The translations under genes and the position numbers were made by a program. Positions 6,306 to 21,163 of a DNA stretch of 40,000 bases are shown in pieces; positions within the stretch are counted from its first letter, which is position 1, and every line of letters begins with the position of its first letter. The notes beneath the pieces are model-generated. The model was not told the origin of the DNA, searched no databases, and worked only from the letters and a program-made list of their open reading frames with translations. The DNA comes from Oscillospiraceae bacterium (GTDB taxonomy: Bacteria; Bacillota; Clostridia; Oscillospirales; Oscillospiraceae), in NCBI GenBank assembly GCA_910575815.1, contig CAJTFN010000001.1, positions 264,507-304,506 on the forward strand, given 5' to 3'.

Positions 6306-6683
6306 ATGAGGATGATTAAGACCGAGAAACTAGGGGCGAACTGGCTCCGCCTGAATGGCTGGAAGCTGATGGCCCTGGCGATTGCGCTGCACGCTGCCCT
6401 GTTCCTGGGCCTGGCCTGGATGGGCAAGCCTCTGACCAGCTATGACGCGGATAATTACCGCTATGTGTTCAGCGCGCTGCTCCAGGTGGTGGGAGGACTT
6501 TTCGCCTTCATTGCCAGCAGCACCCTGGTGGTGCTACAGCTGCTGCACACCAACGCTCCTCACAGCGCCCGCTTCTACCCGAAGAACGTGTTCACCCTTT
6601 TCCTGGTGGACAACGTGCTGGTGCTGCTGTTAGACGCAATGGCAATTTTGATGCTGGAAACGGAGACAAGCCTCTGGAAGTGA
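6306..6683 (+). CDS. N-terminal fragment (125 aa, 3 TM helices) of a membrane-protein gene interrupted by the integrated element
   Basis: The ORF ends ...ETETSLWK followed by TGA. That TGA (6681-6683) is the first triplet of the lower-GC inserted DNA. The frame continues at 24302 (see findings). Confidence 0.55.
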   Translation: MRMIKTEKLGANWLRLNGWKLMALAIALHAALFLGLAWMGKPLTSYDADNYRYVFSALLQVVGGLFAFIASSTLVVLQLLHTNAPHSARFYPKNVFTLFLVDNVLVLLLDAMAILMLETETSLWK

Positions 6684-6690
6684 ATCACAG
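6671..6690. other. putative attL junction
   Basis: cctctggaAGtgaatcacag: host coding sequence up to AG, element sequence after it. Confidence 0.45.
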
Positions 6691-6955
6691 TTAAAGATAT
6701 CATTACAACGCAGTAAACAGCCCACACTTATAAATTATTTCAAATTTACGTAAACACTTTAATTGAATTATACAAGCAGTAGAACAAAACCGAATCGTTA
6801 CCATACCGTCTTCATTTGCATCCGCAGCAGCAGGCATCCACTTAATCCCTTAGACAGGCGGGAGGAATCGCTCAAAATTGTCTTCTTGCTTAAGGGGAAG
6901 GCTGAGTACTGTACCCCGAAAGAACAGTTCTGGTGCTACATAAATTAAAACAACA

Positions 6956-6996
6956 GCCTCATGGATCAGGTATCTTTATACCGACATCCATGAGGC
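6956..6996 (-). terminator. terminator downstream of the tail operon (hairpin usable on both strands)
   Basis: 11-bp perfect stem GCCTCATGGAT (6956-6966) / ATCCATGAGGC (6986-6996). On the minus strand it is followed by TGTTGTTTTAATTTA. It lies about 100 nt after the last tail gene. Confidence 0.45.
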
Positions 6997-7093
6997 CATT
7001 ATTTCCGATGAGTGATTCAGAGCAATACAGCAGCAAATGTCTGTCTATTCTCTTATCATAAACAGGGATTTTCTCAAAAACGCCTATGACAAG

Positions 7094-7660
7094 TTACTTT
7101 TTATGGACAACGCACCTATTCTCGAACATTCCCCAGGTCGTCCAATCATCATGGAACCACCTCCACGTCAGTCCAAGTTCTTCCACATCCGCCCACGTAG
7201 AACTGGAAATCACAAAACGCAGATGGGCCGGTTTCACTTGCTCCACAACGGAATAGATTTCCGACACATCAATATCCGCAAATTCGTCTTTTTCCCCCAA
7301 GAGTTCTAGTGAAAAGCTGTCATCGCCACGAACCATCACGCGGGCTGAATACCCTGTGATATGTTCTGCCAGCTCTTGAATCATTTTCTCGGTGGTATTA
7401 CCACAAGCAATCAACTGCTTTTGGATGGCCGCACGTCTGGCAGTTTCGCTCATTGACTTGTCCGTTCGCAACCCTACTTGCGTTTCCCAGGATTCCAGAC
7501 TCCAGGTAGCCGTGTTTACAAAAAACTGATCCAGCACATCCTCCAGGGCTTCCTTTACCGCAAGGCTGGCGTCCGTCAAGGTCTCCATGATTGCTCTGCT
7601 TTCCGGTGAAGCATAGTGATACTCCGGCACTTGCTCCCTCTTTGGCAGGGTTTTTCTCAT
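7094..7660 (-). CDS. phage tail protein, XkdU/YmfQ-like (DUF2313)
   Basis: The ORF track starts at 7795, but the ATG at 7660 forms an ATGA overlap with the upstream baseplate J stop. Product MRKTLPKREQVPEYHYASPESRAIMETL... has a Trp/Thr-rich C-terminus. Its position after baseplate J matches PBSX-like modules. Confidence 0.7.
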   Translation of the reverse strand: MRKTLPKREQVPEYHYASPESRAIMETLTDASLAVKEALEDVLDQFFVNTATWSLESWETQVGLRTDKSMSETARRAAIQKQLIACGNTTEKMIQELAEHITGYSARVMVRGDDSFSLELLGEKDEFADIDVSEIYSVVEQVKPAHLRFVISSSTWADVEELGLTWRWFHDDWTTWGMFENRCVVHKK

Positions 7661-8751
7661 GTGCCACCCCCAGTCTGCGTAACAGAAATTGTTCCAACGA
7701 CCGGCGCGTCCTCTGCCCGGATCACAACAGACGACATCTGGCCATCTACCGTGAAAGCACTGTAATCCGCTACGCCGGGACAGCGCAGTAAACAAGCTAA
7801 AAAACGGCTGAAGGGTATCACGATTTCTTCTCCGAATTTCTGGCTGCTCAGCAGTTCTCCCACCAATGTTTCTAACTGGACTCTTACTTGCTCCGTTGTA
7901 TACCCGTCCATTAATGTCACAGACGCGGTCAATGGAATCCTCCGTTCTTGGGCGCTGACGACGGTGACTACAGCACCAATGGGGCGTTCCTCTTCAATAT
8001 GGAACGCACATGCGGAGCGAGTAGACTCATCGACAGCTTTTCGATTTGGACCCGCAATTACCACCTTCACAGTACCATTTCCATTCCAGAGGGGGACACA
8101 ACTGGCATAAGACACTCCATCCGTTTCTGTGGCCCAGGTGACATAGTGATTTTTGTTCCCGGAGGTAATGGGCAGGGTACGACGGTTATGGTATCTGCTG
8201 TAAAAATCTGCGTCGCTTTCTACATCAGCGCCGCCAATGGCGGCTGTCGGATTATTCACACTCTTTACTCCAGCAACATTTGTGTACATAGAGGTAATGG
8301 AGTCTGCCGGAATGTTGTATTCTGTGCCAACTTCTGCGGCTTCTGCCCTTGCTTGTGCGGTTCCTTTCACAATTCTTACATCTTCTGTGGTCAAATATCG
8401 CAGCCCGGTTTCCGGGGCATAGAGATTGGTCCCTGCCGGAATGTAAGTCCCCTCTGTTCCAGTAAAGGACATTATAACGGCTGCCTTTTTACCGGTTCTT
8501 CGAAACATACCGATCTGCGCCGCATGTTTGTCAATGTACTCTCCGGCGTTCTCATCCGGAAATACCACAGACAACAGCTTGGGAAACTGCTGATATAGTT
8601 TGAAAATTTGATAGGCCGCCGTACTGACCAGCGTATTGGTATAGGAGCCCTCTCGTGTATCAATAAGAACTCCTTCCTCGTTTAATTCAGACAGCATCTC
8701 CGCTTTGATACTCTCCGGGGTTATGCTGTCATAAGGTGATGTCACAGCCAT
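7657..8751 (-). CDS. baseplate J-like protein (XkdT-like)
   Basis: 364 aa; N-terminus ...ITPESIKAEMLSEL...REGSYTNTLVSTAAYQIFKLYQ... is typical of the Baseplate_J family. Synteny supports the call. Confidence 0.85.
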   Translation of the reverse strand: MAVTSPYDSITPESIKAEMLSELNEEGVLIDTREGSYTNTLVSTAAYQIFKLYQQFPKLLSVVFPDENAGEYIDKHAAQIGMFRRTGKKAAVIMSFTGTEGTYIPAGTNLYAPETGLRYLTTEDVRIVKGTAQARAEAAEVGTEYNIPADSITSMYTNVAGVKSVNNPTAAIGGADVESDADFYSRYHNRRTLPITSGNKNHYVTWATETDGVSYASCVPLWNGNGTVKVVIAGPNRKAVDESTRSACAFHIEEERPIGAVVTVVSAQERRIPLTASVTLMDGYTTEQVRVQLETLVGELLSSQKFGEEIVIPFSRFLACLLRCPGVADYSAFTVDGQMSSVVIRAEDAPVVGTISVTQTGGGT

Positions 8752-9163
8752 CCATACTTACCTCCCCATAAACAGTTGTCATTCTAAAGCTCATATGCAG
8801 ACAAGAGGCCTCAAAAGAGAGCCCCACCTGCGTTACATCGGCGATATACGGATTGACCTGTAAGGTTTCTCGAATTGCGCGAATGGCCTCGGACTGGCGG
8901 ACCTCTTCTGTGCAGGCTTGTCCCAGCAGTCCGCTGAAATCCAGTCCACAGCCGGAACTAAGCACATCGTGAGCAAATCGCTCTGTATGTAAGGCGTTCC
9001 ATGCCCAAACCAGAACCGCTCTGGCACCGGAAACAAAAACCGGGTTTCCTCCCCGCCACACCGGACAGTTCGTCTGAAAGTTCCAGTCCACCTCTCGGTA
9101 CACGGGAAGGCCGGTTCCCTGCGTAATGCCATCCGGCGTGTCAATCAATGGAAATAGGCTCAT
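8729..9163 (-). CDS. baseplate wedge protein, XkdS-like (DUF2634)
   Basis: 144 aa; contains ...VLVWAWNALHTERFAHDVLSSGCGLDFSGLLGQ..., resembling the DUF2634/gp25-neighbour family. Overlaps both adjacent genes. Confidence 0.65.
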   Translation of the reverse strand: MSLFPLIDTPDGITQGTGLPVYREVDWNFQTNCPVWRGGNPVFVSGARAVLVWAWNALHTERFAHDVLSSGCGLDFSGLLGQACTEEVRQSEAIRAIRETLQVNPYIADVTQVGLSFEASCLHMSFRMTTVYGEVSMDGCDITL

Positions 9164-9614
9164 CGTATACTTTCACCAGCCTTTCCAAAAGGTAATAGGT
9201 CTGCCCATCCGGAGACCGCAGAAGGAGGACAGTATCGCCTTCCTTCAATGGGGTCTCATGGATAATCTCCGCCTCCTTTGGAGTCGTTCCCTCTACTGAT
9301 TCCTCGGGGTAAATCACCCACGCGTCCCCCGTCGAAAGGCTGCAATGGCATTCTCCGTGGAGCTGTTTATAGGGAAGCTTCACCGATACGGGCCACGCAA
9401 GGCCGATCAGACGTTCCGTCCACCCTGCCGTCAGGTGTTCCGCGATAAAAAGGTCTTCCTGATCCAGATCCATTCCATCGGCGCGGACAACCAATGGCCG
9501 GACCGACAGCACTTGACCAACCGCGTAGTAATTAGGCACTTCTCTTTGGACTTGGCTTCGAATATGAGCATTCAGTCCAAGGAAAGGGTCCCTTGCATTT
9601 TGCTCTCTCATCAT
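9141..9614 (-). CDS. baseplate/spike-associated protein, XkdR-like (DUF2577)
   Basis: 157 aa; C-terminal ...GDTVLLLRSPDGQTYYLLERL motif. Lies between the XkdQ-like and XkdS-like genes. Confidence 0.6.
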   Translation of the reverse strand: MMREQNARDPFLGLNAHIRSQVQREVPNYYAVGQVLSVRPLVVRADGMDLDQEDLFIAEHLTAGWTERLIGLAWPVSVKLPYKQLHGECHCSLSTGDAWVIYPEESVEGTTPKEAEIIHETPLKEGDTVLLLRSPDGQTYYLLERLVKVYDEPISID

Positions 9615-10585
9615 ACCTCGCTTCCCGCCGACGCTGCTGCCATAACATTCCGGCAGTTCAGCGTCAGCTTTGTATAATAGTCATGATGTTTCCAGGTATG
9701 GATATCGGCGTCAATCCAAAAGATACCCGCCAATCCGGTCTTGGCCTCTTTTACCACAACCGTTTCTCCGGTCAGCAATGAGAGATCTCCTAAAACATTC
9801 ACCGTGACGGTCTTCTGGACTTTTCCGTTTTCCAGAAGTTTCCTGGCACTGGCATCCGCCCCAGCACTTTCATTCTCTCGCTGAATAATGTGGCGTTCCA
9901 TAACACCGTAGAGCTTTTGTGCCTCATCATCACCCATTTTACGGAGCAAGTTCCCATTTGTATCATAAATCGCCACACGGTTTATGATCCTCGCAGCGTC
10001 TTCTTTGGTCACCGCGTCCATCAGGTTTGAAGAAGTCCTCAACACTAAACTGGAACCGCCGGCATCCCGCTCCTTCACCAAAAGCCCCTCCGGCGTGTAT
10101 CGAATCGCGTAGGACTTTCCAGTCTTCTCACCAGTCAATGTCCAGGCTGTGGTTATGATTTGGCTTAAACGCACCGCGGCATATTTTCTCCGCAGAGGAA
10201 TCCCCGTAACTGGCAGCCCCGCCACCGGAATCTCCCGATCCTTGCAAACCGCCTGCGTCTGTGCCTCCGCGGCAGCGCCGGTAAATTTATAGGTGCCATC
10301 GTTCTGCTGCAAATAATAGCCATAGTCAAAAGCGGTAAACGATAAAGTGCTGGATTCGCTGCCCAAACTCCTCAGCAGAATAATCCCCACAAACAAGCGC
10401 TTCCCGTCATTGACCATCGTCACCACATCCCCCAGGGCGGGGACAGGCAAATTGCCGCCCTCCACATAGGAAATCTCCCCGGTCAGCTGCCTGGAAATCG
10501 AAGCCTTATCACCAGACCAGTTCCAGGAAACCATCAGCTCCGTGACATCTCGTGTACTTGTGCCATGGGTCATAAGGAGCTTCAT
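9611..10585 (-). CDS. tail/baseplate hub protein, XkdQ/YqbQ-like (late control D-like)
   Basis: 324 aa; follows the LysM protein with a 4-bp overlap. The order matches PBSX xkdP-xkdQ. Confidence 0.7.
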   Translation of the reverse strand: MKLLMTHGTSTRDVTELMVSWNWSGDKASISRQLTGEISYVEGGNLPVPALGDVVTMVNDGKRLFVGIILLRSLGSESSTLSFTAFDYGYYLQQNDGTYKFTGAAAEAQTQAVCKDREIPVAGLPVTGIPLRRKYAAVRLSQIITTAWTLTGEKTGKSYAIRYTPEGLLVKERDAGGSSLVLRTSSNLMDAVTKEDAARIINRVAIYDTNGNLLRKMGDDEAQKLYGVMERHIIQRENESAGADASARKLLENGKVQKTVTVNVLGDLSLLTGETVVVKEAKTGLAGIFWIDADIHTWKHHDYYTKLTLNCRNVMAAASAGSEV

Positions 10586-11244
10586 GCGAACACCCCCAGC
10601 AGAACGGATTCCGGCGGAATGCGTAAAAGCGTTCCCGGATAGATCAAATGAGGATTCTTGATCTCATTAAACGCCGCTAGGGCATTATAGTACTCCGCAG
10701 AGGACTTCCCATAATACCGCCGGCAAATAATAGACAAGGTATCCCCCTTCGCAACTGCCACCGACTGCTCCTTCTCTCCGTTCCCCAACGCATCCCCTGG
10801 CCGGGTGCTGTTTTGCGCGGCGGTATTGGGATTTGTTGTCTCCACCGCCCCCAGTTCCACATACTCCCGAACGGAGACGGTGACATAGCGGTCCCCGGTT
10901 CCGTCCCGCTCCTCCTGTGCGGCCTCTTCCATGTATACCAGCGCGTTGATTTCCGTACCGGTGATCACCAGCCGCACGGGCTTGCCGTCCTTCACCCAGG
11001 CATTGAAATAGTCCAAATAGTACTGCGGCTCCGCCCGTGCGCCAGCCTCCATCCATGGATAAGACTGGGCGGGAAGCAAAAACTCGAAGCTCCCGGCGAA
11101 CCGTGACCGTCCGCCGGGGCGGTACACATCTCCCAGCTGGCTGATGTTAATGGTTTCCATCCGCCGTCCATTGCTCCATTTATAGCGTCCTGGCGTCACC
11201 GGCATTACCAGGGACACGCCGTCCCGAATGAAACAAAACTGCAT
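10582..11244 (-). CDS. LysM-domain tail protein, XkdP-like
   Basis: 220 aa; C-terminal LysM-like segment VAVAKGDTLSIICRRYYGKSSAEYYNALAAFNEIKNPHLIYPGTLLRIP. Confidence 0.8.
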   Translation of the reverse strand: MQFCFIRDGVSLVMPVTPGRYKWSNGRRMETINISQLGDVYRPGGRSRFAGSFEFLLPAQSYPWMEAGARAEPQYYLDYFNAWVKDGKPVRLVITGTEINALVYMEEAAQEERDGTGDRYVTVSVREYVELGAVETTNPNTAAQNSTRPGDALGNGEKEQSVAVAKGDTLSIICRRYYGKSSAEYYNALAAFNEIKNPHLIYPGTLLRIPPESVLLGVFA

Positions 11245-11248
11245 CTCG

Positions 11249-13282
11249 TTACCCCCTCATTCCCGCCAGCTCCATCTGGGCCAGCAGTTCCGAGGCCACT
11301 CTGGAGATGTCGGCCTCTTCTCGGACAGTAAAGCTGTTTCCGGTAATCGTAATCGCAGGCATCGTGCGTTCGCTCCTGGCTTCCACCGCGGTCTGCACCC
11401 GCTCTCCCTGGTGGAGCAAGGCCGGGAAGTTATCGTATGGTACATAGTCCAGGCCATAGGCATACAGTCCAAGCTCCTTGAGGGTTTCCAGCCGTTGAGC
11501 ATCCTTCTTTGCTTCTTCCGGCGTAAGGTGCTCCACGATTTCAAACCCAGTCCCCCGTGTAAAAGCGTTGCTCATCGTGTAAGCATTGGTAACCGCTTCC
11601 AGCTTTTTTGTATTTTCCCGGATTGCCTCGATCTGGTCCAGCTCCGTATCCTGCATAGTCTGATACCAGCCGCTGGATTCATAAGCGGCTGTTGCCAGAG
11701 CCTCTGCCTCTTCTTTCAGGGCCTCCATCTTCAGTCCAGCCTCCTGACTGCCGTTTTCATAGACTTCGGAAGCTTCTTGGAATTGCTCCCGCAGACCCTC
11801 CAGCTTTTCTGCGTCCTCAGGCTGGAATACCGTAGTCTTATCCCCCAGCACCAGGGCGCTCAATGCCTCCCGCTGGAACTGCTCCGACAAATTCTCCGAG
11901 ATCGCTTTATTCTCACCGATCACTGCGTTCAGCTTCTCCAGGGCATTGCCCAGCTCCCCGCCATAAGCGGCCTGTTCCGCCTGTAGTCCTTCCTTGCGCG
12001 TTTCATTGTAGGACGCGCCCCCGGCGGCGCTGATTGCTGTTTTCGCGTCCTCCACATTGCTTACCAGTGCGTCATAAGTGGACGCCAGTTTTTCGGACAG
12101 GCCGCCGAAGCTCTGCTCCATGTAGTCCAAAACCGCTTGGGCCGCTTCGCTGCCGGAGAAGCCGTCCCCAACGTTCGTCTCCATGCCAGCCGCCTTTCGT
12201 GCCTGTGCGATCTTGTCCAGTACCTGATTGACGTCTGCCCCGCTCCCGGAGAGGAAATTCAGGTCCTCCTGCGTAACCCTTTCGGAAGACTGCATCCGGC
12301 TGAGATTGGAAAGCAGCGTTTGGAATCCGGATTCATCCAGGTTCAGCCCCTCCATTGCGCCGGACAGCTTTTGAAGCGCGCCGATTGCTCCATCCGCGCC
12401 GAAACTGTTCAGAAGGGTCTTGGAGTAGCCGGTGAGCTGGTTGAAGGTGTAATTGCTGGAACTAGCCAGGGACTTCACGCTCTCCAGGTACTTTCCAGCG
12501 GCCTCGTTCCCTCCCAGCCTCTGGGCAAGGACCGCCTGCGTCTGTTCCCGGTCCCTGCTCACCAGGGAACCGCCGGTGATGGTATTCTCTGTGTTGGAGG
12601 ATACGGTTTCGTAAAGGCTTTTGTAGTAGTCTTTGAAAGCATCCTCCTTTGCTTCTACAATTTTAGTAACACTGCTGATGGCTCCAGATACCACTCCGAT
12701 TCCCCCGCCTATCAAAGCACCTGTAGGGCCGAAAATTGCGCCAGCCGCTGCGCCGTTTAAAGCTCCGGAAGCTATGCCGGATATAGCAGAGGCCGTCTGC
12801 TGGCCGAACTGGCTGGTCAGGCCGGTATTGAGCAGCCCCGATACGCTGTTGCTTAAGTCTCTAAAAATCCCTGAAGCATTGAGACCTTTTTTTAATGCAT
12901 CAGTACTAGTCGTTCCTATGCCCGACGAATTACCAGCCGAATCAAAGGCATCTCCCGTTTTCATCATCTGCTTTTCCACATTGGCAGCTTCCTTTGTGAC
13001 CAGAGAGAGATTCCGCCGTGCTTCCTCAAAAGTAAGCTGCTTTCCTTGCAAAATCAACTCATCAATCACATCTCCTGTTGACGCAAATTGTTTTTCTGCG
13101 GCCATAAGACTTTGTTTAGCCTTGTCTGTATCTACTTTCAGAGAAGCCTTTGTTTTATTCAGCGTATCTAGCCTTTTTTGCAGGCCATCCAAATCCTTTG
13201 TGAAAAGCTGACTGGCATCCCGCATCTTTTTCATTGCGTTTACAAAACTGTCCGATGATTGGACGATGGATGTTTCAGGCAT
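11249..13282 (-). CDS. tail tape measure protein
   Basis: 677 aa, long helical and Ala/Glu/Leu/Gln-rich, with a glycine-zipper hydrophobic block GAAAGAIFGPTGALIGGGIGVVSGAISS. Located between the chaperone and baseplate genes. AGGTGG RBS. Confidence 0.8.
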   Translation of the reverse strand: MPETSIVQSSDSFVNAMKKMRDASQLFTKDLDGLQKRLDTLNKTKASLKVDTDKAKQSLMAAEKQFASTGDVIDELILQGKQLTFEEARRNLSLVTKEAANVEKQMMKTGDAFDSAGNSSGIGTTSTDALKKGLNASGIFRDLSNSVSGLLNTGLTSQFGQQTASAISGIASGALNGAAAGAIFGPTGALIGGGIGVVSGAISSVTKIVEAKEDAFKDYYKSLYETVSSNTENTITGGSLVSRDREQTQAVLAQRLGGNEAAGKYLESVKSLASSSNYTFNQLTGYSKTLLNSFGADGAIGALQKLSGAMEGLNLDESGFQTLLSNLSRMQSSERVTQEDLNFLSGSGADVNQVLDKIAQARKAAGMETNVGDGFSGSEAAQAVLDYMEQSFGGLSEKLASTYDALVSNVEDAKTAISAAGGASYNETRKEGLQAEQAAYGGELGNALEKLNAVIGENKAISENLSEQFQREALSALVLGDKTTVFQPEDAEKLEGLREQFQEASEVYENGSQEAGLKMEALKEEAEALATAAYESSGWYQTMQDTELDQIEAIRENTKKLEAVTNAYTMSNAFTRGTGFEIVEHLTPEEAKKDAQRLETLKELGLYAYGLDYVPYDNFPALLHQGERVQTAVEARSERTMPAITITGNSFTVREEADISRVASELLAQMELAGMRG

Positions 13283-13297
13283 TGTCCACCTGCTTTC

Positions 13298-13326
13298 TTG
13301 ACAAATATTGTTAACTGCTATATACT
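13298..13326 (+). promoter_or_regulatory. near-consensus sigma70-type promoter pointing against the tail operon
   Basis: TTGACA (13298-13303), a 17-nt spacer, then TATACT (13321-13326). Confidence 0.5.
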
Positions 13327-13336
13327 AACTTAAAAA

Positions 13337-13548
13337 AGGAGGGAATCTGTTATGATGTGGGATGATTTTTGGCGTGAAATCCGTCAGTATTTCCAAGAGA
13401 ATCCTATGATCAAATTTGCAGCAATATTGGCATGTGTTTTCCTTGTAATTGCTGTGCTTATGCTTCTTACTCAGGCAATTTAAGGCTGCCGAGGCTATGT
13501 AGGAGGAATCTATTATGATGTGGGATGATTTTTGGCGCGAAGTCCGCC
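13337..13548 (+). repeat. direct repeat of the peptide gene's RBS and first 11 codons (copies at 13337-13385 and 13501-13548)
   Basis: aggagggaatctgttatgatgtgggatgatttttggcgtgaaatccgtc versus aggagg-aatctattatgatgtgggatgatttttggcgcgaagtccgcc: 4 substitutions and 1 indel. The second copy opens an 18-codon ORF (13515-13571). Confidence 0.8.
13352..13483 (+). CDS. 43-aa single-TM peptide (MMWDDFWREIRQYFQENPMIKFAAILACVFLVIAVLMLLTQAI)
   Basis: Below the ORF-track length cutoff and found by reading the sequence. AGGAGG (13337-13342) lies 9 nt before the ATG, and the promoter is 25 nt further upstream. Acidic/aromatic N-terminus followed by one hydrophobic helix. Confidence 0.5.
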   Translation: MMWDDFWREIRQYFQENPMIKFAAILACVFLVIAVLMLLTQAI

Positions 13549-13758
13549 CTTTTTTGACTCCTCTGATTTAGCAGCTTCTTTTTTCTTCCCATTCATCCTG
13601 CCGCCAGTCCTTCGCTCCCTTCCCTCCGTTCTCTGCTTCACCTCATAGGACGACAGTGCGTAAATCAGGTCATGCCACCCCGTCTCCCCCTCCCACAGGG
13701 CCCGCAAATCCGCAAGGCCCCAGTGGTGGACGGAGAACAGATAGTACAGCAGCCCCAA
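13513..13758 (-). CDS. tail assembly chaperone -1 frameshift extension (T-like ORF)
   Basis: The ORF lies in the -1 frame relative to the upstream chaperone gene. The -1 frame stays open from the slippery site (...KKRLEDGGDGELGLLYYLFSV...). The track's start codon is TTG and probably not an independent start. Confidence 0.55.
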   Translation of the reverse strand: MGLLYYLFSVHHWGLADLRALWEGETGWHDLIYALSSYEVKQRTEGRERRTGGRMNGKKKEAAKSEESKKGGLRAKNHPTS

Positions 13759-13778
13759 TTCCCCGTCGCCGCCGTCCT

Positions 13779-14183
13779 CTAGGCGTTTTTTACTTCCGTG
13801 ATCGTCATCCGGCGGTATCCGCTCAGCCGCTCAACCGCCTGGCTCAAATCCGTGATCTCCCCCGGCAGCAGCATCTTCTTTACCGCCTCCGCCGGTGTGG
13901 CCCCGCCAAACTTCTCCATCAGCCGCCCGTCCTTCAGGTCCGGCTCCACACAGCCCGCCAGCAGGATGTTCACATCCGCGTCCTGAGTGAACCGCTCCAA
14001 ATCGTGGGTCTTGCCGTAAGGAAGGGCCCGCAGAGTGAATACCACGTCCTGTCCCGCCAGCTCGCTTAGCCGGTCCACCCGGTAGCGCGCGGTGGGCAGT
14101 TCTTTTTCCACATTGGGTGCCGCCCCCAGCAGCATCTCCAGTACAGAGGTTTCCGTTCCCTCTTTTTTGATCTGATCCGCCAT
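13779..14183 (-). CDS. tail assembly chaperone, XkdN-like
   Basis: 134 aa located between the tube and tape measure genes. GGAGGAG RBS. Ends ...TEVKNA at a slippery heptamer. Confidence 0.7.
   Translation of the reverse strand: MADQIKKEGTETSVLEMLLGAAPNVEKELPTARYRVDRLSELAGQDVVFTLRALPYGKTHDLERFTQDADVNILLAGCVEPDLKDGRLMEKFGGATPAEAVKKMLLPGEITDLSQAVERLSGYRRMTITEVKNA
13785..13791 (-). other. -1 programmed ribosomal frameshift slippery heptamer A_AAA_AAC
   Basis: The minus strand reads GTA AAA AAC GCC TAG. The X_XXY_YYZ pattern is in the zero frame, two codons before the chaperone stop. Confidence 0.6.
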
Positions 14184-14200
14184 ATGCTCCTCCTATCTCC

Positions 14201-14242
14201 GGCCCCGTCCCTGACAAGAGGGACGGGGCCATTTCTTATGTT
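14201..14242 (+). terminator. strong hairpin between the tube and chaperone genes; the U-tract is on the plus strand
   Basis: GGCCCCGTCCCT (14201-14212) / AGGGACGGGGCC (14219-14230) form a 12-bp perfect stem. On the plus strand it is followed by ATTTCTTATGTT. On the minus strand it is followed by GGAGATAGGAGG with no U-tract. Confidence 0.4.
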
Positions 14243-14254
14243 CGAGTAATTTCC

Positions 14255-14683
14255 TCAGGAATCCAGAATCTCGTAAGACTCCGCCGTAAAGGGAGCCTCG
14301 ATGGTCCCCAGCTTGGCGGCTTCCCAGTCCGCCAGCGTCAGGTCGTCAAAGATCACGCCCTTGACGGCGATCCGCTGGTTGCGGGGGTTGTCCGGGTCGT
14401 CCAGGTTGCTGATAATCGTGTGACGGAGGTCCTCTCCCGCGGCCATGGCCCGGCTCTCTGCCTCCAGCAGGCGGCTGGTGGCGTTGTAGAGCTTCACGGA
14501 GCCGGTCAGGGAAACGCCGGTCAGCTTTTTCCCAGACACCAGTGTCCGGCACCGGGGCACGTCCTCCTTGTTCTTGTTGATTTTCAGCTGGAAGCCGTAG
14601 CACTCCGCCATCTGCTCCCCGTCCATCCACAGGGAACCCCACGTGCCGCTCCGTACCAGCTTGGCATCCAGAATATCAGACAT
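14255..14683 (-). CDS. tail tube protein, XkdM-like
   Basis: The ORF track starts at 14890, but the ATG at 14683 has AGGAGG 7 nt upstream. Product is 142 aa, MSDILDAKLVRSGTWGSLWMDGEQMAECYGFQLKINK..., and sits directly after the sheath gene. Confidence 0.8.
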   Translation of the reverse strand: MSDILDAKLVRSGTWGSLWMDGEQMAECYGFQLKINKNKEDVPRCRTLVSGKKLTGVSLTGSVKLYNATSRLLEAESRAMAAGEDLRHTIISNLDDPDNPRNQRIAVKGVIFDDLTLADWEAAKLGTIEAPFTAESYEILDS

Positions 14684-14696
14684 ACAAATTCCTCCT

Positions 14697-15782
14697 TTAC
14701 TGTGCTTCCAGTGTGATGTGGAAATCCTCCATGGCGTCCAGCACCCTGCCATAGAGGTACAGGAACACATGGCTGCCGGTGTCTTCCTTCCGCAGTTCCT
14801 CGTCGGAGAGGGCTTTGACCCGGTTGACTTCCTCGGCATCTCCAGCGTCATTGGCCTGCTCCAGCAGGTAATTCCGGGTGGCCTCCGCATCCAGTTCTAC
14901 GCCGGAGGAACCACTCTGCAGAATGTCCTGTCCCTCCAGTGCGTCGAGGAAATCCCGGAAAGCGGTCAGCAGAATGCATTTATTGTCATAACTGTTGGCG
15001 CACTTCCCCAGATATTGGTCTTCCACGGTCGTGATGGCGTAGTAGCGGATCAGGTCCACAGCAGCCACCATCTTGATTTTCTTCAGCAGCGCCGGTTCTC
15101 CCTCTTTCAGCGTGGCCTTGGAGTTCACCGCCCGGCCCAGCTTCACATGCCGCCCGTCGTCCACCAGAATCAGTTTGCCGGCATCCACGGCGGCGTCCGG
15201 ATCCTCCACCGCAGTCACGCCTGTCACTTCGGGCAGAGCGGCATAGGTAGCGCTGCAATCTGCGGGGGTTCCGGCCAGTACACCTGCGATGCGGCCGGCA
15301 TACTGAGCTGCGCTGAAAGTATCCTGTCCGATTTGAATACCGGATGCCATGAAGTTGATAATGCCCTCGTCGTCCGCGGCGGTACCCGGCAGCACCGCTT
15401 TGCCCACAAAACGTTTCTTCCGCTGAGCCTTTACAAAAGCCGCCAGAGCTGATGCTTCCTCGGAGGTGATATCCAGCGGCCCCGCCAGATAGTCGTAGCT
15501 GTAAGCCGCCAGGGCCTGAAATCCGGCGGAAATCCCGTCTTCCGGCCCAATAACGCTGACATAGACCGCGGAGGGACGGTTGATATATCCCTCCATCGCC
15601 CGTTTGATGGCAGCCGCATTAGTGGCACCCAACTCTGCGGGAATATCGCTCTCCCGGCGAATCGTATAGACGCCGTTCGCCTTGGCATCGCGCAGAATCA
15701 ACGCGACAATACCGCTTGAAATACGCATAGCCGCTGTCGCGGCAGCTTTTTTCAGGGAAAAAGAAAGTTCAGGAAGTCCCAT
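14697..15782 (-). CDS. contractile tail sheath protein, XkdK-like
   Basis: 361 aa; N-terminus MGLPELSFSLKKAAATAAMRISSGIVALIL... with a sheath-family look. Followed by the tube gene. Confidence 0.85.
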   Translation of the reverse strand: MGLPELSFSLKKAAATAAMRISSGIVALILRDAKANGVYTIRRESDIPAELGATNAAAIKRAMEGYINRPSAVYVSVIGPEDGISAGFQALAAYSYDYLAGPLDITSEEASALAAFVKAQRKKRFVGKAVLPGTAADDEGIINFMASGIQIGQDTFSAAQYAGRIAGVLAGTPADCSATYAALPEVTGVTAVEDPDAAVDAGKLILVDDGRHVKLGRAVNSKATLKEGEPALLKKIKMVAAVDLIRYYAITTVEDQYLGKCANSYDNKCILLTAFRDFLDALEGQDILQSGSSGVELDAEATRNYLLEQANDAGDAEEVNRVKALSDEELRKEDTGSHVFLYLYGRVLDAMEDFHITLEAQ

Positions 15783-16293
15783 AAGTGTCTCCTCTCAATA
15801 TGTTTGTATGATCCCGAATTCTCACGGTATAGCTGTCCGCCGCCGGGCTATCGGCTTCTTCGCCCGTTTCGGAACGATTATCAAACCATGAGGCATTGAT
15901 TTGAATACAGTTTTCACCTTTCTCCGATTGCAAGGCTTTCAAACCCAGCTTCAGGTGCCGGGAACCCACCTGAAGCACCGGATTCAGCAACTCCATGATC
16001 TCACATCGTTCTCTCGCTGACTGGCGCGAAAACGCATCCGCCGACTGGCCTATTTGATCATAAATTGTCAGCTTCATTTGCACATCATGACAGATGAAGA
16101 GTCGATTAGCATCTGCCCACTCATCTTTTTCAACCGCCAAACAGTACGAAGGCGGCACAAAACCGGCAGGACAGGTGTCTATATAGACCGGTCGATCCGG
16201 CCAGTGCTTTTTTAGTCGTTGGATGATCATGTCCAAAATGTCCAGAGTTCTCAATAGCCCCTCCTCGCAGTTCTTTAATTCAAGCGCGCTCAT
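15769..16293 (-). CDS. tail terminator / tail-completion-like protein (XkdJ position)
   Basis: Start taken as the ATG at 16293 (MSALELKNCEEG...). The track's longer 5' extension is AT-rich leader sequence. 174 aa, with a 14-bp overlap onto the sheath start. Pattern ...WPDRPVYIDTCPAGFVPPSYCLAV...MKLTIY resembles tail-terminator family proteins. Confidence 0.5.
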   Translation of the reverse strand: MSALELKNCEEGLLRTLDILDMIIQRLKKHWPDRPVYIDTCPAGFVPPSYCLAVEKDEWADANRLFICHDVQMKLTIYDQIGQSADAFSRQSARERCEIMELLNPVLQVGSRHLKLGLKALQSEKGENCIQINASWFDNRSETGEEADSPAADSYTVRIRDHTNILRGDTYGTS

Positions 16294-16315
16294 ACAATAG
16301 TCCGCATTTCCCCTT

Positions 16316-16339
16316 TTGTTGCACGTTTTTATGCAACAA
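16316..16339. promoter_or_regulatory. palindrome TTGTTGCA-N8-TGCAACAA in the AT-rich leader of the tail operon
   Basis: Perfect 8-bp inverted repeat at 16316-16323 / 16332-16339, about 25-45 nt upstream (in the minus-strand sense) of the first tail gene. Confidence 0.35.
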
Positions 16340-16682
16340 ATATAATAAAATTTTTTAAAAGTAAAAATTGCGAACATCAAATTGAGTCACATGATCGTGT
16401 GGATTGCCTGTACTACAGCGTAGACAGCATTCAAGCATTCATCATAATGGCAACTGCAAAGAAGCCCTATTCCCTCAAATTTTCTCAAGAGAAAAGTATT
16501 CTGTGGATTCCGTGGCGGCAACTTGCACCGTTAGCAGGCAACGAGGAAAACTACCGCCGACATTTTATTGTCTTGCCAAGACGTGGGTTTAGAAAAACGC
16601 TTGTCTCGGCGTAACGATGCAGGAAATGGATTTGTTGGAAGCTGCCGAAGCCGCACAGACACGCCCAAGGTAAAATCCGCTC

Positions 16683-16711
16683 TTGACAATCTTTCCCATC
16701 GGTGCTATGCT
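16683..16711 (+). promoter_or_regulatory. candidate promoter for the rightward (ParB-like/relaxase) genes
   Basis: TTGACA (16683-16688), a 17-nt spacer, then TATGCT (16706-16711). This would give a leader of about 370 nt. Confidence 0.35.
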
Positions 16712-17086
16712 TTTCATCACAGCAACGTACTGGGAAAAATATTTTATTAACTGGTTTTATTCTAACAGGTTTTCTCGAAAGAGATTGGATATCATTAATA
16801 GGCTTATCGCTGTACCCTGAGCGCATTTGCGCTCGGGGTAAAAGTATATGACCGTCCAATCAGATACTTTTACGGGGAAGCCTGCCATAACTTCAGTTTG
16901 AACGAGCGGGCCTAGTGAGGAAACACGACACAGCGCCGAGCAGGGTTGCCTGTCAGGAACCGGATTGGATAGAACGGCAAACTTACGGCGAAGGCTCACA
17001 AAAAACAAACTGAAGGAGATGGTACTCTGCAAAACACAAAAATCGAATACAACAGTTCCGAACGGACGCCGACCGTCCTGTCGGCG

Positions 17087-17962
17087 ATGGAACAACTGCT
17101 TCCGCCTCTCAGCGGTGAGCAGTTTTCTTCTTTAGAGAGTGACATCCTGGAAAACGGCTGCTACGCTCCAATCATCGTCAACGAGGATATGACCGTCATA
17201 GACGGGCATAATCGTTTTCGAATCTGCGAAAAACACAATCTTTCATTTACAATGCTGGTATTTTCGTTCGCCGATCTGCTTGAAGCCAAGCAGTGGGCAG
17301 TGGATACCCAAAAGGGCCGCCGCAATCTGGATAAGTGGGAATTAGGCAAGATCGCGCTGAAGCTGAAACCGGAAATCGAGGCCAGGGCACGGGCCAATAT
17401 GTCCGCTGGGGGCGGCGACCACAAGAGCGATAGTGTGAAATCGGGTTTGGTGAATTCACCAAACCCGATTTTGCCTGTGGATACCAGGAAGGAAGCGGCC
17501 CTGGCCGTAGGAATCGGAGAACAGACCATGGGCAGGGTCGCACAAATGGCGGAAACCGCGCCCCAGGCCCTGAAAGACGCGCTGGACAGGAAAGAAGTGT
17601 CCATTAACAGGGGCTGGAAAATCCTGAAAGCGGTTCGGCAGTTGCCTCTGGAAGAGCAGGAATCCGCCGCCGCCGAGATGCTGTCGGCTGTGCGGGAAAT
17701 TGACCAACTGGACGCTGAAGCGGAGCACAGAGGGAAAATCGCCAGCCTGTTCTGCAAAGCATATGAAAAAGCTGTTCTTCTGACTCCTACATTGGAAAAT
17801 GTTCGCATTTGGGTAGAAAACACCCGCATGAGGCCGGATGAGATCGAGGGCGCTATGCGGGAATCTTATGAACTGGCCCAGACGTTTCAGGCCATTGGAG
17901 ATTTGCTCAAAAATGAAGTTCTGCATGATTGTCAACAGGCTGTACATCCAGATAGAGCTTGA
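17087..17962 (+). CDS. ParB N-terminal domain (ParB/Srx-like) protein
   Basis: 291 aa; ...LLPPLSGEQFSSLESDILENGCYAPIIVNEDMTVIDGHNRFRIC... fits the ParB-like nuclease-domain pattern (DGHNR). The only good RBS (GAAGGAG, 17012-17018) lies upstream and the frame is open from there, so the start may be earlier and non-ATG. Confidence 0.65.
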   Translation: MEQLLPPLSGEQFSSLESDILENGCYAPIIVNEDMTVIDGHNRFRICEKHNLSFTMLVFSFADLLEAKQWAVDTQKGRRNLDKWELGKIALKLKPEIEARARANMSAGGGDHKSDSVKSGLVNSPNPILPVDTRKEAALAVGIGEQTMGRVAQMAETAPQALKDALDRKEVSINRGWKILKAVRQLPLEEQESAAAEMLSAVREIDQLDAEAEHRGKIASLFCKAYEKAVLLTPTLENVRIWVENTRMRPDEIEGAMRESYELAQTFQAIGDLLKNEVLHDCQQAVHPDRA

Positions 17963-18149
17963 GCGGATAAGACTATGGACAAGGGGGTTATGTATGCACA
18001 CCCAGCCTCCGTTTTTTGAGGATGCAGGGTAGGAGCAGGTGCATACATATGCCCCCACCATCGAAGCAAAGACTGTCCGCCAAATCATCTGGACATTACC
18101 GGAACAGGCTGATATGATGTGGCCTACCCAATAACAGGAGGTACGCCCG

Positions 18150-18458
18150 ATGGAAGTAAGATTTTTCTTTGATAAAGCTGCAGCAGAGCGGCGCAGCTAC
18201 ACATTGGAGGCTGTGCATCAGACGATAAAAAGCCTGTTCGCCACCCACGACCTCCCCTGCGTCTCTGACGGAGATACCCTCGTCTTCAAGGATAAGGGTC
18301 ACGGCGATGACTTTGCCGTCATGTGGGATATCATCTTGTCCCTGCTGCGGACGAATTGGTTCATGGACTGCGCCGCTTCCTGTGTTTGGCGGGACGAGGA
18401 TGGTGAGGAAGACATACTCGCTCAGGCTGGGAAAGTAGGGAGCACCATGCGGCAATAA
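18150..18458 (+). CDS. hypothetical protein (102 aa, acidic)
   Basis: AGGAGG lies 7 nt before the ATG. I recognise no family. Confidence 0.5.
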   Translation: MEVRFFFDKAAAERRSYTLEAVHQTIKSLFATHDLPCVSDGDTLVFKDKGHGDDFAVMWDIILSLLRTNWFMDCAASCVWRDEDGEEDILAQAGKVGSTMRQ

Positions 18459-18516
18459 TCTGCGGTGGGCCGCAGCCCCCACCGGCCCAAATTTCAATCA
18501 CCCTACCACTGGAAAA

Positions 18517-18687
18517 GGCCCCGCTTCGGCGGGGTCAAAGCTCACGCCGACGGGGCGGCGTGAGCGCAAGCATCGCAAAAATGTACATTTTTATAGCTTG
18601 CAGGGGAACCCCCCTGTCCCCAATGCCGCCTGCGGGCGGAAATTTTGGGGAACCCCGCCGCAACCCAGCGAAGCGGTTGCGGTGGGG
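18517..18687 (+). other. oriT-like structured region upstream of the relaxase
   Basis: Stem-loops at 18517-18536, 18541-18564 (9-bp perfect stem), 18601-18616, 18626-18639 and 18653-18687 (13 bp). A perfect 16-bp AT palindrome AAAAATGTACATTTTT lies at 18577-18592. GGGGAACCCC occurs twice. Confidence 0.4.
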
Positions 18688-18797
18688 AGAGAAGGAAGGA
18701 ATGGAGCGGGCGGAGTTTTCGCCGACAGGCGGAAACACAGCGGAGCGGAATTTCTTCCGACGAGGCGGTCAAGAGCCGCGAAAGGAGTTGACGCAAC

Positions 18798-20201
18798 GTA
18801 GCTGTTACAAAAATTCTGGCAAGAAATACCCGACTGAATCAGGCCATTCAATATGTGCTGAATGGGGATAAAACCGACAGGCGGATCCTGACATACCACC
18901 AAAACTGTGACCCCGGCTTGGAGTACCGGGAGATGATGGATACCAAGCGGGCCATCGGAAAACTGGATGGCCGCCAGTGCTATCACATCGTCCAGTCCTT
19001 CAAGCCGGGAGAGGTTTCCCCGGAGCTGGCGCTGGAAATCGCAAAGGAATTCGCTGCTGAGTACCTGCCGGATTATGAGGTGGTCATCGGGACCCACGTT
19101 GACAAAAAGCACATTCACTCCCACCTGATATTCAATTCCGTGAATGCGCAGACCGGGAAAAAATATCACATTTCAACCCAGGAGTATTACCGTCAGATTC
19201 GGGCGATCTCGGAGCGGCTGTGCAGAGAACATGGGCTATCCGTGGTTATGGAAGGCCAGCCCTCCCAGACCGTCAGCTACATCGGATGGCTGCGGCAGTC
19301 CAAAGGCCAGCCGACCTTCCGCTCTATGCTGGAGGCGGACCTGCGGACCGCCATTGAGGACGCCAACGACCTGGGGCACTTTTTCATGCTTGTTGAGCAT
19401 ATGGGCTGGGAGATCAGCCACGGGAACCGCCTGGGCTTCCGTCTGCGGGGACAGGAACGATTTATGTACCCTGGACGTAAGAATCCATTGTTCACGGAGG
19501 ATGGTATCCGCGCCGCTATTGCGGGCAATCTGGAGGAAATTGAGGCCGGACGCCGACCGGAGGTGATTCACCGGCCTTACTATCAACCCTATAAAGAACA
19601 TCCGAAATACTCTGGATTTATGGCGCTGTATGTTCACTATCTCTACGTTTTAGGGAAAGTCGAAAAGCGTCAGTACCCTCCCCGAATGACGCCCCAGCTA
19701 CGGAAAGAAGTCATGCGCTTCGAGCGGTACAGAGAGCAATTTTCGTTTCTTCGGGAGAACAATATCGTCAGCCAGGAGGATATGACCGCTTTCCAATCCA
19801 GTGCAGAGGACGAGCTGGCCAATTTTATGAAGCAGCGCACAATCCTGAATGTGCGGAAAAAGAAGCGAAAAGGGCTGTATGACGCTCTGGCTGATGTAGC
19901 GGCTCTGGAGCAGGCGAAAGCGCTCTATGAGGAAGGGCTGTCCGGCATGGAAGCGGAGTTCTCCCGGTACATGGAGGCGGAAGCTGTTCTGGAGCGGAGC
20001 GGCGTTCCTCGGGAACAGCTCACAGCAGAGAAAGCAGCGATATACGAGCAGCTGGCACAGGTCAACGCCGACATCCGAACGGCGAGGAAGAAGCTGGCGC
20101 TGTGCAAGGAAATTCAGAACCGCCTGCCTCAGATGGAGCAGACAATCAGAAATATTGAATCCAGAGAAACGGAAATCCATGAGAAGCACAGAGGGCGGTA
20201 A
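18798..20201 (+). CDS. MobA/VirD2-family relaxase (mobilization nuclease domain); the conserved N-terminus lacks a canonical start codon
   Basis: The ORF track starts at GTG 18855. The frame is open from 18792 and encodes VAVTKILARNTRLNQAIQYVLNGDKTD..., a typical relaxase N-terminus. His-rich motif THVDKKHIHSHLIFNSVN is present. AAAGGAG RBS at 18781-18787. Confidence 0.8.
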   Translation, partial: VAVTKILARNTRLNQAIQYVLNGDKTDRRILTYHQNCDPGLEYREMMDTKRAIGKLDGRQCYHIVQSFKPGEVSPELALEIAKEFAAEYLPDYEVVIGTHVDKKHIHSHLIFNSVNAQTGKKYHISTQEYYRQIRAISERLCREHGLSVVMEGQPSQTVSYIGWLRQSKGQPTFRSMLEADLRTAIEDANDLGHFFMLVEHMGWEISHGNRLGFRLRGQERFMYPGRKNPLFTEDGIRAAIAGNLEEIEAGRRPEVIHRPYYQPYKEHPKYSGFMALYVHYLYVLGKVEKRQYPPRMTPQLRKEVMRFERYREQFSFLRENNIVSQEDMTAFQSSAEDELANFMKQRTILNVRKKKRKGLYDALADVAALEQAKALYEEGLSGMEAEFSRYMEAEAVLERSGVPREQLTAEKAAIYEQLAQVNADIRTARKKLALCKEIQNRLPQMEQTIRNIESRETEIHEKHRGR

Positions 20202-20327
20202 AACCGCCTCCTGTCGGCTTTTTAGGGCAATCTGAGTCCCTGACCGACTGAGACCACATAGGCCCACACGCCGCAACCTGTGGGCCGACACGGCAAAAAA
20301 GGAGTTAATGTATCTATGAAAAAATTA
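20124..20327 (+). repeat. direct repeat copy A (relaxase 3' end, hairpins, RBS and degenerate start of the next gene)
   Basis: Aligns with 22165-22368. The 51-nt core 20178-20228 differs from 22219-22269 at 2 positions. Confidence 0.75.
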
Positions 20328-20344
20328 TAAATCGCAAATCACGG

Positions 20345-20373
20345 TTGATATTTTAACTGTTTTGCGCTATAAT
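20345..20373 (+). promoter_or_regulatory. promoter of the AbiE cassette
   Basis: TTGATA (20345-20350), a 17-nt spacer, then TATAAT (20368-20373). Confidence 0.5.
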
Positions 20374-20398
20374 CAGTTTTACAAAGAAGGTGATATAG

Positions 20399-21163
20399 TT
20401 GAAGCATTATGAAAAGCTGCTGGAGCTCGGCTGTTTTTCACGCGGCAAAATTGCCGCGCTGCTTGGCAACGATGAAACAGCGGGTTCGCTGTTGCGGGAG
20501 TATCAGAAAAAGGGCTATATTGAGCGTGTCCGGCGCGATTTGTATGTTGTCATAAGCCTTGAGACAAAACAGCCGGTAGTATCCCGGTACCAGATCGGAT
20601 GTTCCGTTTTTGACGATGCCGTCATAGCCAATCACAGCGCCTTTGAGGTTTTCGGATTTGCAAATCAGGTGTTCTATGAGGTCTATGTCTGCACAGGTCA
20701 TCGCTTTCCCGACTTCCAGTACAACGGTGTCTCCTATCATCGTCTTGCGCCGAAAAGCAGCATTGACACTGTTTACAGCGGCGGCGTCCGTGTCACAAGC
20801 TTGGAACAGACTGTGATAGACAGCATCGCTGATTTTGAAAAATTTACCGGCCTGGAAGAGACGCTGCGCTGTATAATGCTGATCCCCTCTTTAGACGAGG
20901 GAAAACTCCTTTGCATTCTCGGTGAATTGGGTAACGGCTATCTTTGGCAGAAGTGTGGATATGTTTTGGAGGAATTGAACGGCATACTCCATCTTTCGCC
21001 CGAATTTTTTAAGGCTTGTCATGACCATATTGCAGGCAGTAAACGCGCTCTTTTGAAGGAAACGGTCGGACCGGTAATCTGGAACAGGAAATGGGATTTA
21101 TATGTCCCTGAATCTATACGCACTCTGACGGATAAGGGGGGAGATTTCCGTGATACAGTATGA
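20399..21163 (+). CDS. AbiEi-family antitoxin / transcriptional regulator (type IV TA)
   Basis: 254 aa with a TTG start after a GAAGGTGA RBS. N-terminal winged-helix-like segment ...LLREYQKKGYIERVRRDLYVV.... Overlaps and precedes an AbiEii-type gene. Confidence 0.7.
   Translation: MKHYEKLLELGCFSRGKIAALLGNDETAGSLLREYQKKGYIERVRRDLYVVISLETKQPVVSRYQIGCSVFDDAVIANHSAFEVFGFANQVFYEVYVCTGHRFPDFQYNGVSYHRLAPKSSIDTVYSGGVRVTSLEQTVIDSIADFEKFTGLEETLRCIMLIPSLDEGKLLCILGELGNGYLWQKCGYVLEELNGILHLSPEFFKACHDHIAGSKRALLKETVGPVIWNRKWDLYVPESIRTLTDKGGDFRDTV

Follow-up and report, generated by a model that had tools for sequence, protein, structure and literature searches.

A complete operon for a contractile phage tail is carried as cargo by an integrative mobilizable element (IME) in an Oscillospiraceae bacterium. 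We analyzed 40,000 nucleotides of its genome (assembly GCA_910575815.1, contig CAJTFN010000001.1, positions 264,507 to 304,506; hereafter the window), in which a locus of ~17.6 kb (6679..24284, with one copy of the GGA overlap counted) is an IME that belongs to a large family in gut Oscillospiraceae. The 9.3-kb tail cassette within it has an intact counterpart in a diverged lineage that is likewise devoid of head and fiber genes. Comparison of these lineages leads us to favor, tentatively and with serious points on the other side, the reading that the cassette is a selectively maintained, helper-dependent tail-only unit.

The tail cassette occupies the cargo slot of an integrative mobilizable element

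The G+C content of the window is about 60% and falls to 50-56% between ~6.7 and 24.3 kb; the genes outside this stretch are metabolic or housekeeping (ABC transporter, DUF1622, aminotransferase, AraC, TRAP transporter, UxuA/UxaC, FtsK and UppP). Unoccupied chromosomes define the limits of the element. Seventeen conspecific contigs carry the identical neighboring aminotransferase, and all eight of those compared (L054-L061) have an empty site: they match the window up to position 6678 and resume at 24282, with a 3-bp overlap, GGA. The element therefore spans ~6679-24284, with the attL core at 6676-6678 and the attR core at 24282-24284. The empty attachment site reads ...CCTCTG-GA-GGCAGG... and lies in a gene of 420 amino acids that is uninterrupted in each of the eight contigs, matches no Pfam family and adjoins the DUF1622 gene. 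In the window, the insertion splits this gene into an N-terminal ORF (open reading frame) of 125 amino acids (6306-6683) and a C-terminal one of 283 amino acids (24329-25180). It is firmly supported that the element inserted recently into an intact host gene. TnpX-type recombinases use a GA-type crossover, and by analogy we take the crossover dinucleotide to be GA. A first-pass annotation of the window had placed attR at 24301, where a TCTGGAG repeat in the host sequence is misleading. The idea that the target is read as an in-frame fusion at an AGT core was rejected as well: the empty site puts the right junction 20 bp further left, with the GGA overlap.

The mobility functions lie on the plus strand in two backbone segments. 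The first (16681..20327) contains a promoter-like site (16683-16711), a ParB-like gene (17087-17962), a conserved ORF of 102 amino acids (orf102, 18150-18458) and the gene for a MobA/VirD2-type relaxase (18855-20201; PF03432). The second (22163..24284) holds a conserved ORF of 83 amino acids (orf83, 22321-22572), a gene for a DUF4368-containing large serine recombinase (22602-24245), together with the right-end half-site. The element thus has its own recombinase, defined ends and a precise insertion relative to the empty site, and it encodes a relaxase without mating-pore genes, since neither a type IV secretion system nor a coupling protein is present among its annotated ORFs. Between the two segments lies a full AbiEi/AbiEii toxin-antitoxin or abortive-infection pair (20399..22148, plus strand), which is absent from sibling elements. 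It is bracketed by 179-bp direct repeats that are 79% identical (20122-20300 and 22163-22341) and duplicate the region downstream of the relaxase gene; because the siblings have a single copy of this repeat and no AbiE, the pair must have inserted here.

These siblings form a well-populated family. We found more than 3,500 homologues of the ParB-like protein, and the contexts of the five that we examined share one layout: a left half-site, variable cargo, the ParB-like gene, small ORFs, a MOB relaxase gene, a large serine recombinase gene and a right half-site. Nucleotide homology between the window and four different siblings starts abruptly at 16672-16682 and skips the AbiE cassette (20327-22163). 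The cargo consists of LacI and unknown genes in sibling L045, and of two-component and sugar-binding genes in L049-L053. TetR, aldo-keto reductase and HAD genes are also part of the sibling cargo, and L022 is another sibling without the tail block. For one further sibling (L121 and L127-L129), both ends were recovered, and its cargo is an 11-kb island of HATPase_c_3, Z1, DUF4420, AIPR, Dcm and Vsr genes. Because the siblings share the backbone from 16681 rightwards but differ in their cargo, we conclude that the tail block fills the variable cargo slot. A unique spacer (16355..16680) separates the cassette from the backbone; we searched for a homologue of it and found none. The sibling with both ends occurs on more than 20 contigs (e.g., Ga0137308_100782); its 11-kb island also encodes a 537-amino-acid unknown protein, and a NikA/MobC-like gene, which the window lacks, precedes its relaxase gene.

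The ends of the element are imperfect inverted half-sites, with agreement at 16 of 23 positions. Sibling L045 has a right end that differs from that of the window at 4 of 24 positions and from the reverse complement of the window's left end at 5. The left-end half-site (AGTGAATCACAGTTAAAGATATC..., 6679..6710, plus strand) is the sole left-end sequence common to the sibling IMEs and amounts to only ~30 bp: the terminus of L121 reads ...TAATATCTTTAACTATGATTCACTTC, with no further inward match to the left end of the window. When metagenomes were scanned with the left-end motif, 35 loci were returned, nearly all of them chance or unrelated matches; only L121 and L122 represent a sibling left end. 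Exact look-ups of the ParB-like protein returned no record, and the backbone had no match in a plasmid collection.

Twelve intact genes encode all parts of a PBSX-type tail

The tail module (7094-16293) consists of twelve co-oriented, tightly overlapping ORFs on the minus strand, in the gene order of PBSX. The first-pass annotation had read this set from the letters alone; Pfam and PHROGs profile searches bear it out, and every tail protein aligns end to end with its profile or with its homologues. The operon opens with a terminator-like protein of 174 amino acids (15769..16293), followed by the tail sheath (361 amino acids, 14697..15782; phrog_1480, 1-359 of 353, 5.6e-98), the tail tube (DUF2001, 142 amino acids, 14255..14683; Pfam, 1.6e-41), the XkdN-type tail assembly chaperone G (13779-14183; PF08890) and its extension T in the -1 frame (13513-13758), which is kept in all relatives and for which frame arithmetic gives a -1 shift. 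Next come the tape measure (677 amino acids, 11249..13282; phrog_33570, residues 5-677, 7e-85), an XkdP-like LysM tail protein (10582..11244; Pfam and PHROGs) and an XkdQ-like baseplate protein of the YQBQ family (9611..10585; PF24032, 2.8e-40). The module ends with an XkdR-like DUF2577 protein (9141..9614; PF10844, 3.5e-12), a gp25/XkdS-like sheath initiator (8729..9163; PF10934, 5e-21), the XkdT-like baseplate J protein (364 amino acids, 7657..8751; PF04865, 4e-61) and an XkdU-like Mu gp48/DUF2313 baseplate protein (188 amino acids, 7094..7660; PF10076, 4.4e-20, and phrog_521).

The terminator-like call rests on position and synteny, because the Pfam match is below the cut-off (PF20765, Phage_tail_terminator_8: 22.7 bits against 24.2); the protein also matches phrog_525, its gene is syntenic in all relatives, and it occupies the slot that precedes the sheath gene in PBSX-type phages. 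A fold search for this protein was dropped, as the AlphaFold model was poor (pLDDT 45.7, from a 7-sequence alignment).

The element therefore combines sheath, tube, tape measure and baseplate genes with no capsid gene, as tailocins do. Profile scans of every ORF of at least 60 amino acids in the element (Pfam, PHROGs) gave no match to head, portal, terminase, fiber, holin, lysin or regulator families, as had been noted from the sequence beforehand, and repressor, primase/replication, terS and capsid families were likewise missing among the element's ORFs. There is no AAA+ ATPase or effector ORF in the element, and all tail matches are to PBSX or phage families. Searches of the cassette flanks for traces of neck or fiber genes (tblastx and relaxed tblastn) gave only noise, and past the XkdU-like gene there is no fiber gene but only a hairpin and the end of the island. 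PADLOC matched none of the tail proteins, and Rfam and tRNA scans of the window were empty.

This hairpin (6947..7005, minus strand; -33.7 kcal/mol, z = -5.9) is a putative terminator of the tail operon: none of 200 shuffled sequences folded as well. A simple terminator scan had missed it, and the folding result supports the earlier claim that the module closes at a terminator. At the other end of the operon lies a conserved AT-rich leader (16294..16354, minus strand). Its palindrome, TTGTTGCA-N8-TGCAACAA (16316-16339), has a perfect 8-bp stem and lies immediately upstream of the first tail gene's ribosome-binding site. The diverged cassette lineage L136, described below, retains this stem with a different loop, and in the corresponding leader of the related phage L001, between neck and tail genes, the stem is degenerate. 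From its sequence, the palindrome could be an operator or an RNA hairpin.

The island is found at two chromosomal sites

Proteins identical to the sheath and to gp48 of the window were recovered on ~8-10 contigs, which come from different runs. L029/L131 are identical to the window and sit at the same site. Three runs yielded the contigs L030, L132 and L133, which match it at 99.8% identity, and past the same left end they have a different flank that reads ...TTTGTCG-GA-AGTGAATC...; this is a second chromosomal insertion site of the island with its tail cargo, with copies in samples SRR31563899, SRR31560102 and SRR17406699. The presence of the same island at two sites supports integration at new sites as a unit together with its tail genes, and excision and conjugative transfer are predicted. 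Over 10.2 kb, the copies at the two sites differ by 15 substitutions and two 1-bp indels. Island contigs break at ~16855-16888, near the start of the multi-copy backbone (16681). One more contig (L135, SRR24675121) matches the window up to 245 bp beyond the gp48 stop codon and diverges at 6849, with 22 bp available; it may have an insertion in the spacer at this point or represent a third context. In L030, an extra A at ~13585 shortens the chaperone extension from 81 to 63 amino acids, nearer to the 57-67 amino acids of its relatives.

The first-pass annotation had named three readings of the locus without a choice among them: a prophage trimmed on both sides, a mobilizable island that captured a tail module, and a tail-only satellite or tailocin-like element that depends on a helper. 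The sharp start of backbone homology at 16681, the ~30 bp of common left end and the two insertion sites argue for the second, and Pfam matches, the empty site and the siblings all confirm that the remainder of the locus (ParB-like gene, relaxase, toxin-antitoxin cassette and serine recombinase) is an IME. Tail-less siblings with the same backbone and ends, together with the eight empty and intact targets, refute the first. The related scenario of a deletion remnant, in which a prophage once resided at this att site and the mobilization genes were its own, is very improbable indeed. Phages also use large serine recombinases as integrases, and a ParB-like homologue (59% identity) is encoded on a 65-kb viral contig together with a related tail module. 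Yet none of the eight conspecific contigs, among which a fuller prophage at the same att site had been suggested as something to look for, holds one, the backbone and ends are common to tail-less IMEs with other cargo, no neck or fiber remnants flank the cassette, and the island is present as the same unit at the second site. The viral contig in question (IMGVR_UViG_3300029746_000335; L036 and L073) carries the tail module (sheath 68% identical) and the ParB-like gene ~22 kb apart, so that this ParB-like gene family is common to these phages and IMEs. The ParB-like homologues in IMG/VR at 59% identity have no other gene in common with the island. Capture of the cassette by imprecise excision was considered and rejected, since the cassette is internal, between the canonical left half-site and the backbone.

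The cassette derives from Oscillospiraceae myoviruses

We compared ~50 related tail loci from genomes and IMG/VR. All are colinear with the window from the terminator-like gene to the gp48-like gene, and none adjoins the IME backbone. One of them, L003 (sheath 74% identical), is a full prophage with terminase, portal, protease and capsid genes upstream of the tail and small ORFs and a lysin gene downstream. The closest phage type is L001 (sheath 81%; 188 variants in its cluster), in which neck genes homologous to those of L003 are followed by a 110-bp AT-rich leader, the tail genes and, ~20 bp past gp48, a tail fiber gene of 338 amino acids. Among 5.8 billion protein clusters, only the lineages of the window and of L136 have a sheath more than 81% identical to that of the window, and the L001 phage type comes next. 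Carrier contigs of these two lineages do not exceed 10.9 kb, except for two with the island in the chromosome at the window's site (512.8 kb, from which the window is taken, and 35.8 kb); the phage-type relatives sit on contigs of 39-124 kb. In deposited phages, sheath identity reaches at most 37.5%, and no relative turned up when viral contigs were scanned with the terminator-like protein. Gene order and homology indicate that the cassette derives from L001-like Oscillospiraceae myoviruses: its start falls within the leader that naturally separates neck from tail genes, and its end lies 39 bp past the XkdU-like gene.

Tail genes of this type are exchanged in a fine-scale mosaic, as shown by an Oscillibacter prophage-like locus (L017, 10001-14355) in which tube (95%) and chaperone (84%) nearly match those of the window, while the tail is otherwise different (sheath 53%, unrelated baseplate genes). 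On a contig of a Lachnospiraceae metagenome-assembled genome (L014, 2644-4005), a related terminator-like gene and sheath gene have pieces of a large serine recombinase (28% identical) immediately upstream; the chaperone and tape-measure region of this contig is duplicated.

A thirteenth ORF of the module, antisense to the tail genes on the plus strand (13352..13483), lies between the chaperone and tape measure genes and encodes 43 amino acids with one hydrophobic stretch by eye; it is called as a gene in L029. Its 5' part is duplicated in 51-nt direct repeats that are 86% identical (13342-13392 and 13505-13555). In the same slot, unrelated small hydrophobic ORFs are present in L136 and L044 (both 69 amino acids, two hydrophobic stretches), in L003 and L062, in L002 and in L009, and the gap looks like a conserved "moron" slot.

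A diverged lineage carries the same tail-only cassette

A survey of relatives for the same architecture, which the first-pass annotation had proposed, uncovered a second head-less and fiber-less lineage with nearly the same boundaries and intact genes. This lineage is present in samples DRR519817, SRR21022915 and SRR21465067. All its contigs are at most 10.8 kb long; its sheath is 92-93% and its terminator-like protein 80-82% identical to those of the window. The contig L136 (10,788 bp) holds the whole cassette with 12/12 genes intact and of equal lengths, except for the tape measure and the T extension. The shared core as delimited by blastn, for which the tape-measure segment is too diverged, corresponds to 7055..16354 of the window (minus strand); it begins 61 bp upstream of the first ATG and extends 39 bp beyond the last stop codon. 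L136 has no neck or fiber genes and no IME backbone. Upstream of its cassette are part of a DUF6076 gene, which is encoded by the other strand, and a serine recombinase (resolvase) stub of 19 codons, MDTYGYVRVSTREQNEDKR*, fused to the leader; a second run (L137) shows exactly the same junction. A second DUF6076 gene lies downstream. Shared sequence or repeats flanking the cassette were looked for and rejected: the two DUF6076 genes are paralogues with 37% identity. The literature that we searched makes no mention of DUF6076.

For all genes but the tape measure, the closest relative of either cassette lineage is the other one. When the tape measure gene is left out, they differ by 586 synonymous and 328 non-synonymous substitutions (dS 0.49, dN/dS 0.135). 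When substitutions were polarized with L001 as the outgroup, dN/dS was ~0.21 on the branch leading to the window and ~0.17 on that leading to L136, and comparison of L136 with a 3.4%-diverged relative (L044) gave 0.117. Tube and chaperone have the same amino acid sequence (100% identity) in the window and in L136, despite a dS of 0.15-0.19. The tape measure, at 41% amino acid identity, is the most diverged gene of the cassette and has for this reason probably been swapped by recombination.

Selective maintenance or passive carriage

The intact genes could also be explained without any function. The IME, and separately the DUF6076/resolvase context, would then have recently captured an inert block of prophage, kept intact by its recency or by patching through recombination with phages. 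We regard this as a doubtful but serious possibility, and several observations speak for it. The mosaicism of tail genes attests to frequent exchange with phages, the cassette has no fiber, lysis or regulator gene and no recognized promoter, and no other IME with tail genes turned up among the ~50 related tail loci and the 6 sibling IME types examined. The nonsense allele and the nearly neutral recent substitutions described below point the same way. Against passive carriage, two lineages at a dS of 0.49 keep 12/12 ORFs with a dN/dS of 0.13-0.21, which neutral decay after a shared capture cannot account for. Capture in a common ancestor followed by neutral inheritance is unlikely, because a dS of ~0.5 would have destroyed most of the twelve ORFs. 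Independent captures would need four breakpoints, both in each lineage, to agree to within tens of bases although the operons are tightly packed, and the donor phages are not seen: none is closer than 81% in a very large database.

The reading that the cassette is a maintained tail-only unit has, in turn, to contend with a series of results that weigh against it. No promoter on the tail strand was recognized in the leader, and the fiber, lysis and regulator genes sought by profile scans are missing from the element. The terminator-like gene is truncated by a C-to-T substitution at 15972 (Q108*) in L030, L031, L032 and L035, that is, in four of the five independent metagenomic copies that cover the site. 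The mutation deletes the C-terminal third of the protein, which is conserved in all homologues, and it marks the second-site copies, so that the island evidently spreads without an intact terminator-like gene. The question of decay, raised by the first-pass annotation, has a divided answer, with all tail genes intact in the window and L136 but this one disrupted in most metagenomic copies. Within the window lineage, the 13 coding substitutions comprise 6 synonymous, 6 missense and 1 nonsense change; this 7:6 ratio is compatible with neutrality, as the corresponding dN/dS of 0.37 is not significantly below 1 (P = 0.066). Per-gene dS between the window and L136 spans 0.15-0.88. This heterogeneity, the swapped tape measure and the 95% identical tube of L017 indicate that recombination with phages is frequent, and the low dN/dS could partly be imported from functional phages rather than earned in a head-less state. 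Finally, the L136 contig, and with it the visible context of that cassette, ends in the DUF6076 genes.

If the cassette is indeed maintained, we would envisage the following course. The recombinase would excise the island, the relaxase would nick it, and a co-resident conjugative element would transfer it. The cassette would be kept as a tail-only unit with all parts of a PBSX-type tail, namely baseplate, tape measure, G/GT chaperones, tube, sheath and terminator, and a related resident or infecting myovirus would supply late transcription through the conserved leader, receptor-binding proteins and lysis. The tails might then provide a tailocin chassis, equip tail-less capsids or act as decoys that disturb the assembly of a phage. 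A more specific version seems to us rather unlikely, though worth stating: the tail-only cassette may hop between mobile backbones (the IME and the DUF6076/resolvase context) and be activated through its leader by a helper myovirus, its tails joining the helper's fibers or tail-less capsids, or sabotaging the helper.

A defensive role by interference with assembly appears improbable. In such a scheme, the late activator of an infecting myovirus would induce the cassette, and receptor-less tails or mismatched baseplate parts would compete for heads and cut virion yield. The same cargo slot carries a defense island in a sibling, AbiE is present on the island of the window, and the leader is inherited from a phage neck-tail region. 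In addition, the peripheral baseplate genes, whose products would touch the fibers, are among the most diverged (baseplate J 83% and gp48 72% amino acid identity; dS 0.8-0.9). However, PADLOC recognized none of the tail proteins, twelve intact genes would not be needed for interference, most copies have lost the terminator-like gene, a loss that such a function would not obviously survive, and the proposal is purely inferential.

Relation to known systems and significance

PBSX-type temperate myoviruses of clostridia (C. difficile phiCD481-1, C. tetani phiCT453B and Terrisporobacter TPELB_ph1) have an identical gene order from the pre-sheath gene to XkdU. In these phages, terminase, portal, protease, capsid and neck genes lie upstream and fiber, holin and amidase genes downstream, as in the canonical head-neck-tail-fiber-lysis order of the phiCD481-1 annotation, whereas the cassette has none of them. 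Their sheaths are at most 37.5% identical to that of the window, and its real relatives are the uncultured Oscillospiraceae prophages L001 (81%) and L003 (74%).

R-type tailocins (PBSX, diffocin, R-pyocin) are head-less contractile tails with a similar set of tail structural genes. Tailocin loci encode their own receptor-binding fiber and its chaperone, a lysis cassette and regulators, and they reside at fixed chromosomal positions. The cassette differs in that it has no fiber, lysis cassette or regulator of its own and rides on a mobilizable island. Phage-inducible chromosomal islands that form capsids (cf-PICIs) are its conceptual mirror image, as mobile islands that encode one half of a virion and obtain the other from a phage. 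They package their own DNA in their own capsids and have the regulation and replication modules of satellites. The island of the window moves by relaxase and recombinase and is not a PICI- or P4-type satellite, because it lacks packaging, replication and repressor genes. Cytoplasmic contractile injection systems of Streptomyces and the extracellular ones (eCIS; Afp, PVC) are likewise sheath-tube-baseplate machines without a head, and some are without fibers. They belong to the Afp/eCIS lineage, with genes for an AAA+ ATPase and effectors; in contrast, all genes of the cassette are of the PBSX phage type, with neither ATPase nor effector.

The backbone resembles Tn4451/TnpX-type elements and other gut IMEs (PMC12084326, PMC12904643), which have a large serine recombinase with DUF4368, a MOB relaxase, no conjugation genes and variable cargo. 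The cargo described for IMEs consists of resistance, metabolism or defense genes and not, as here, of a full tail operon; PMC12084326 makes no mention of tail genes. In the literature that we searched, we found neither an IME with a tail operon as its cargo nor a tail-only satellite, in agreement with the first-pass annotation, which knew of no tail-only mobilizable element.

Even if the cassette is inert, it documents a cleanly delimited IME cargo slot that holds a whole phage operon, with exact ends, an empty site, a second site and a dated decay (Q108*). If functional, it would represent a new kind of element. The cf-PICIs, which make capsids and borrow tails, establish that the halves of a virion can come from different elements, and tail production would, if our reading is true, be an independently inherited and horizontally traded trait. 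This bears on what counts as IME cargo, on interference with virion assembly as a defense of mobile elements, and on the origin of chimeric particles, tailocins and activities like those of gene transfer agents in gut Oscillospiraceae.

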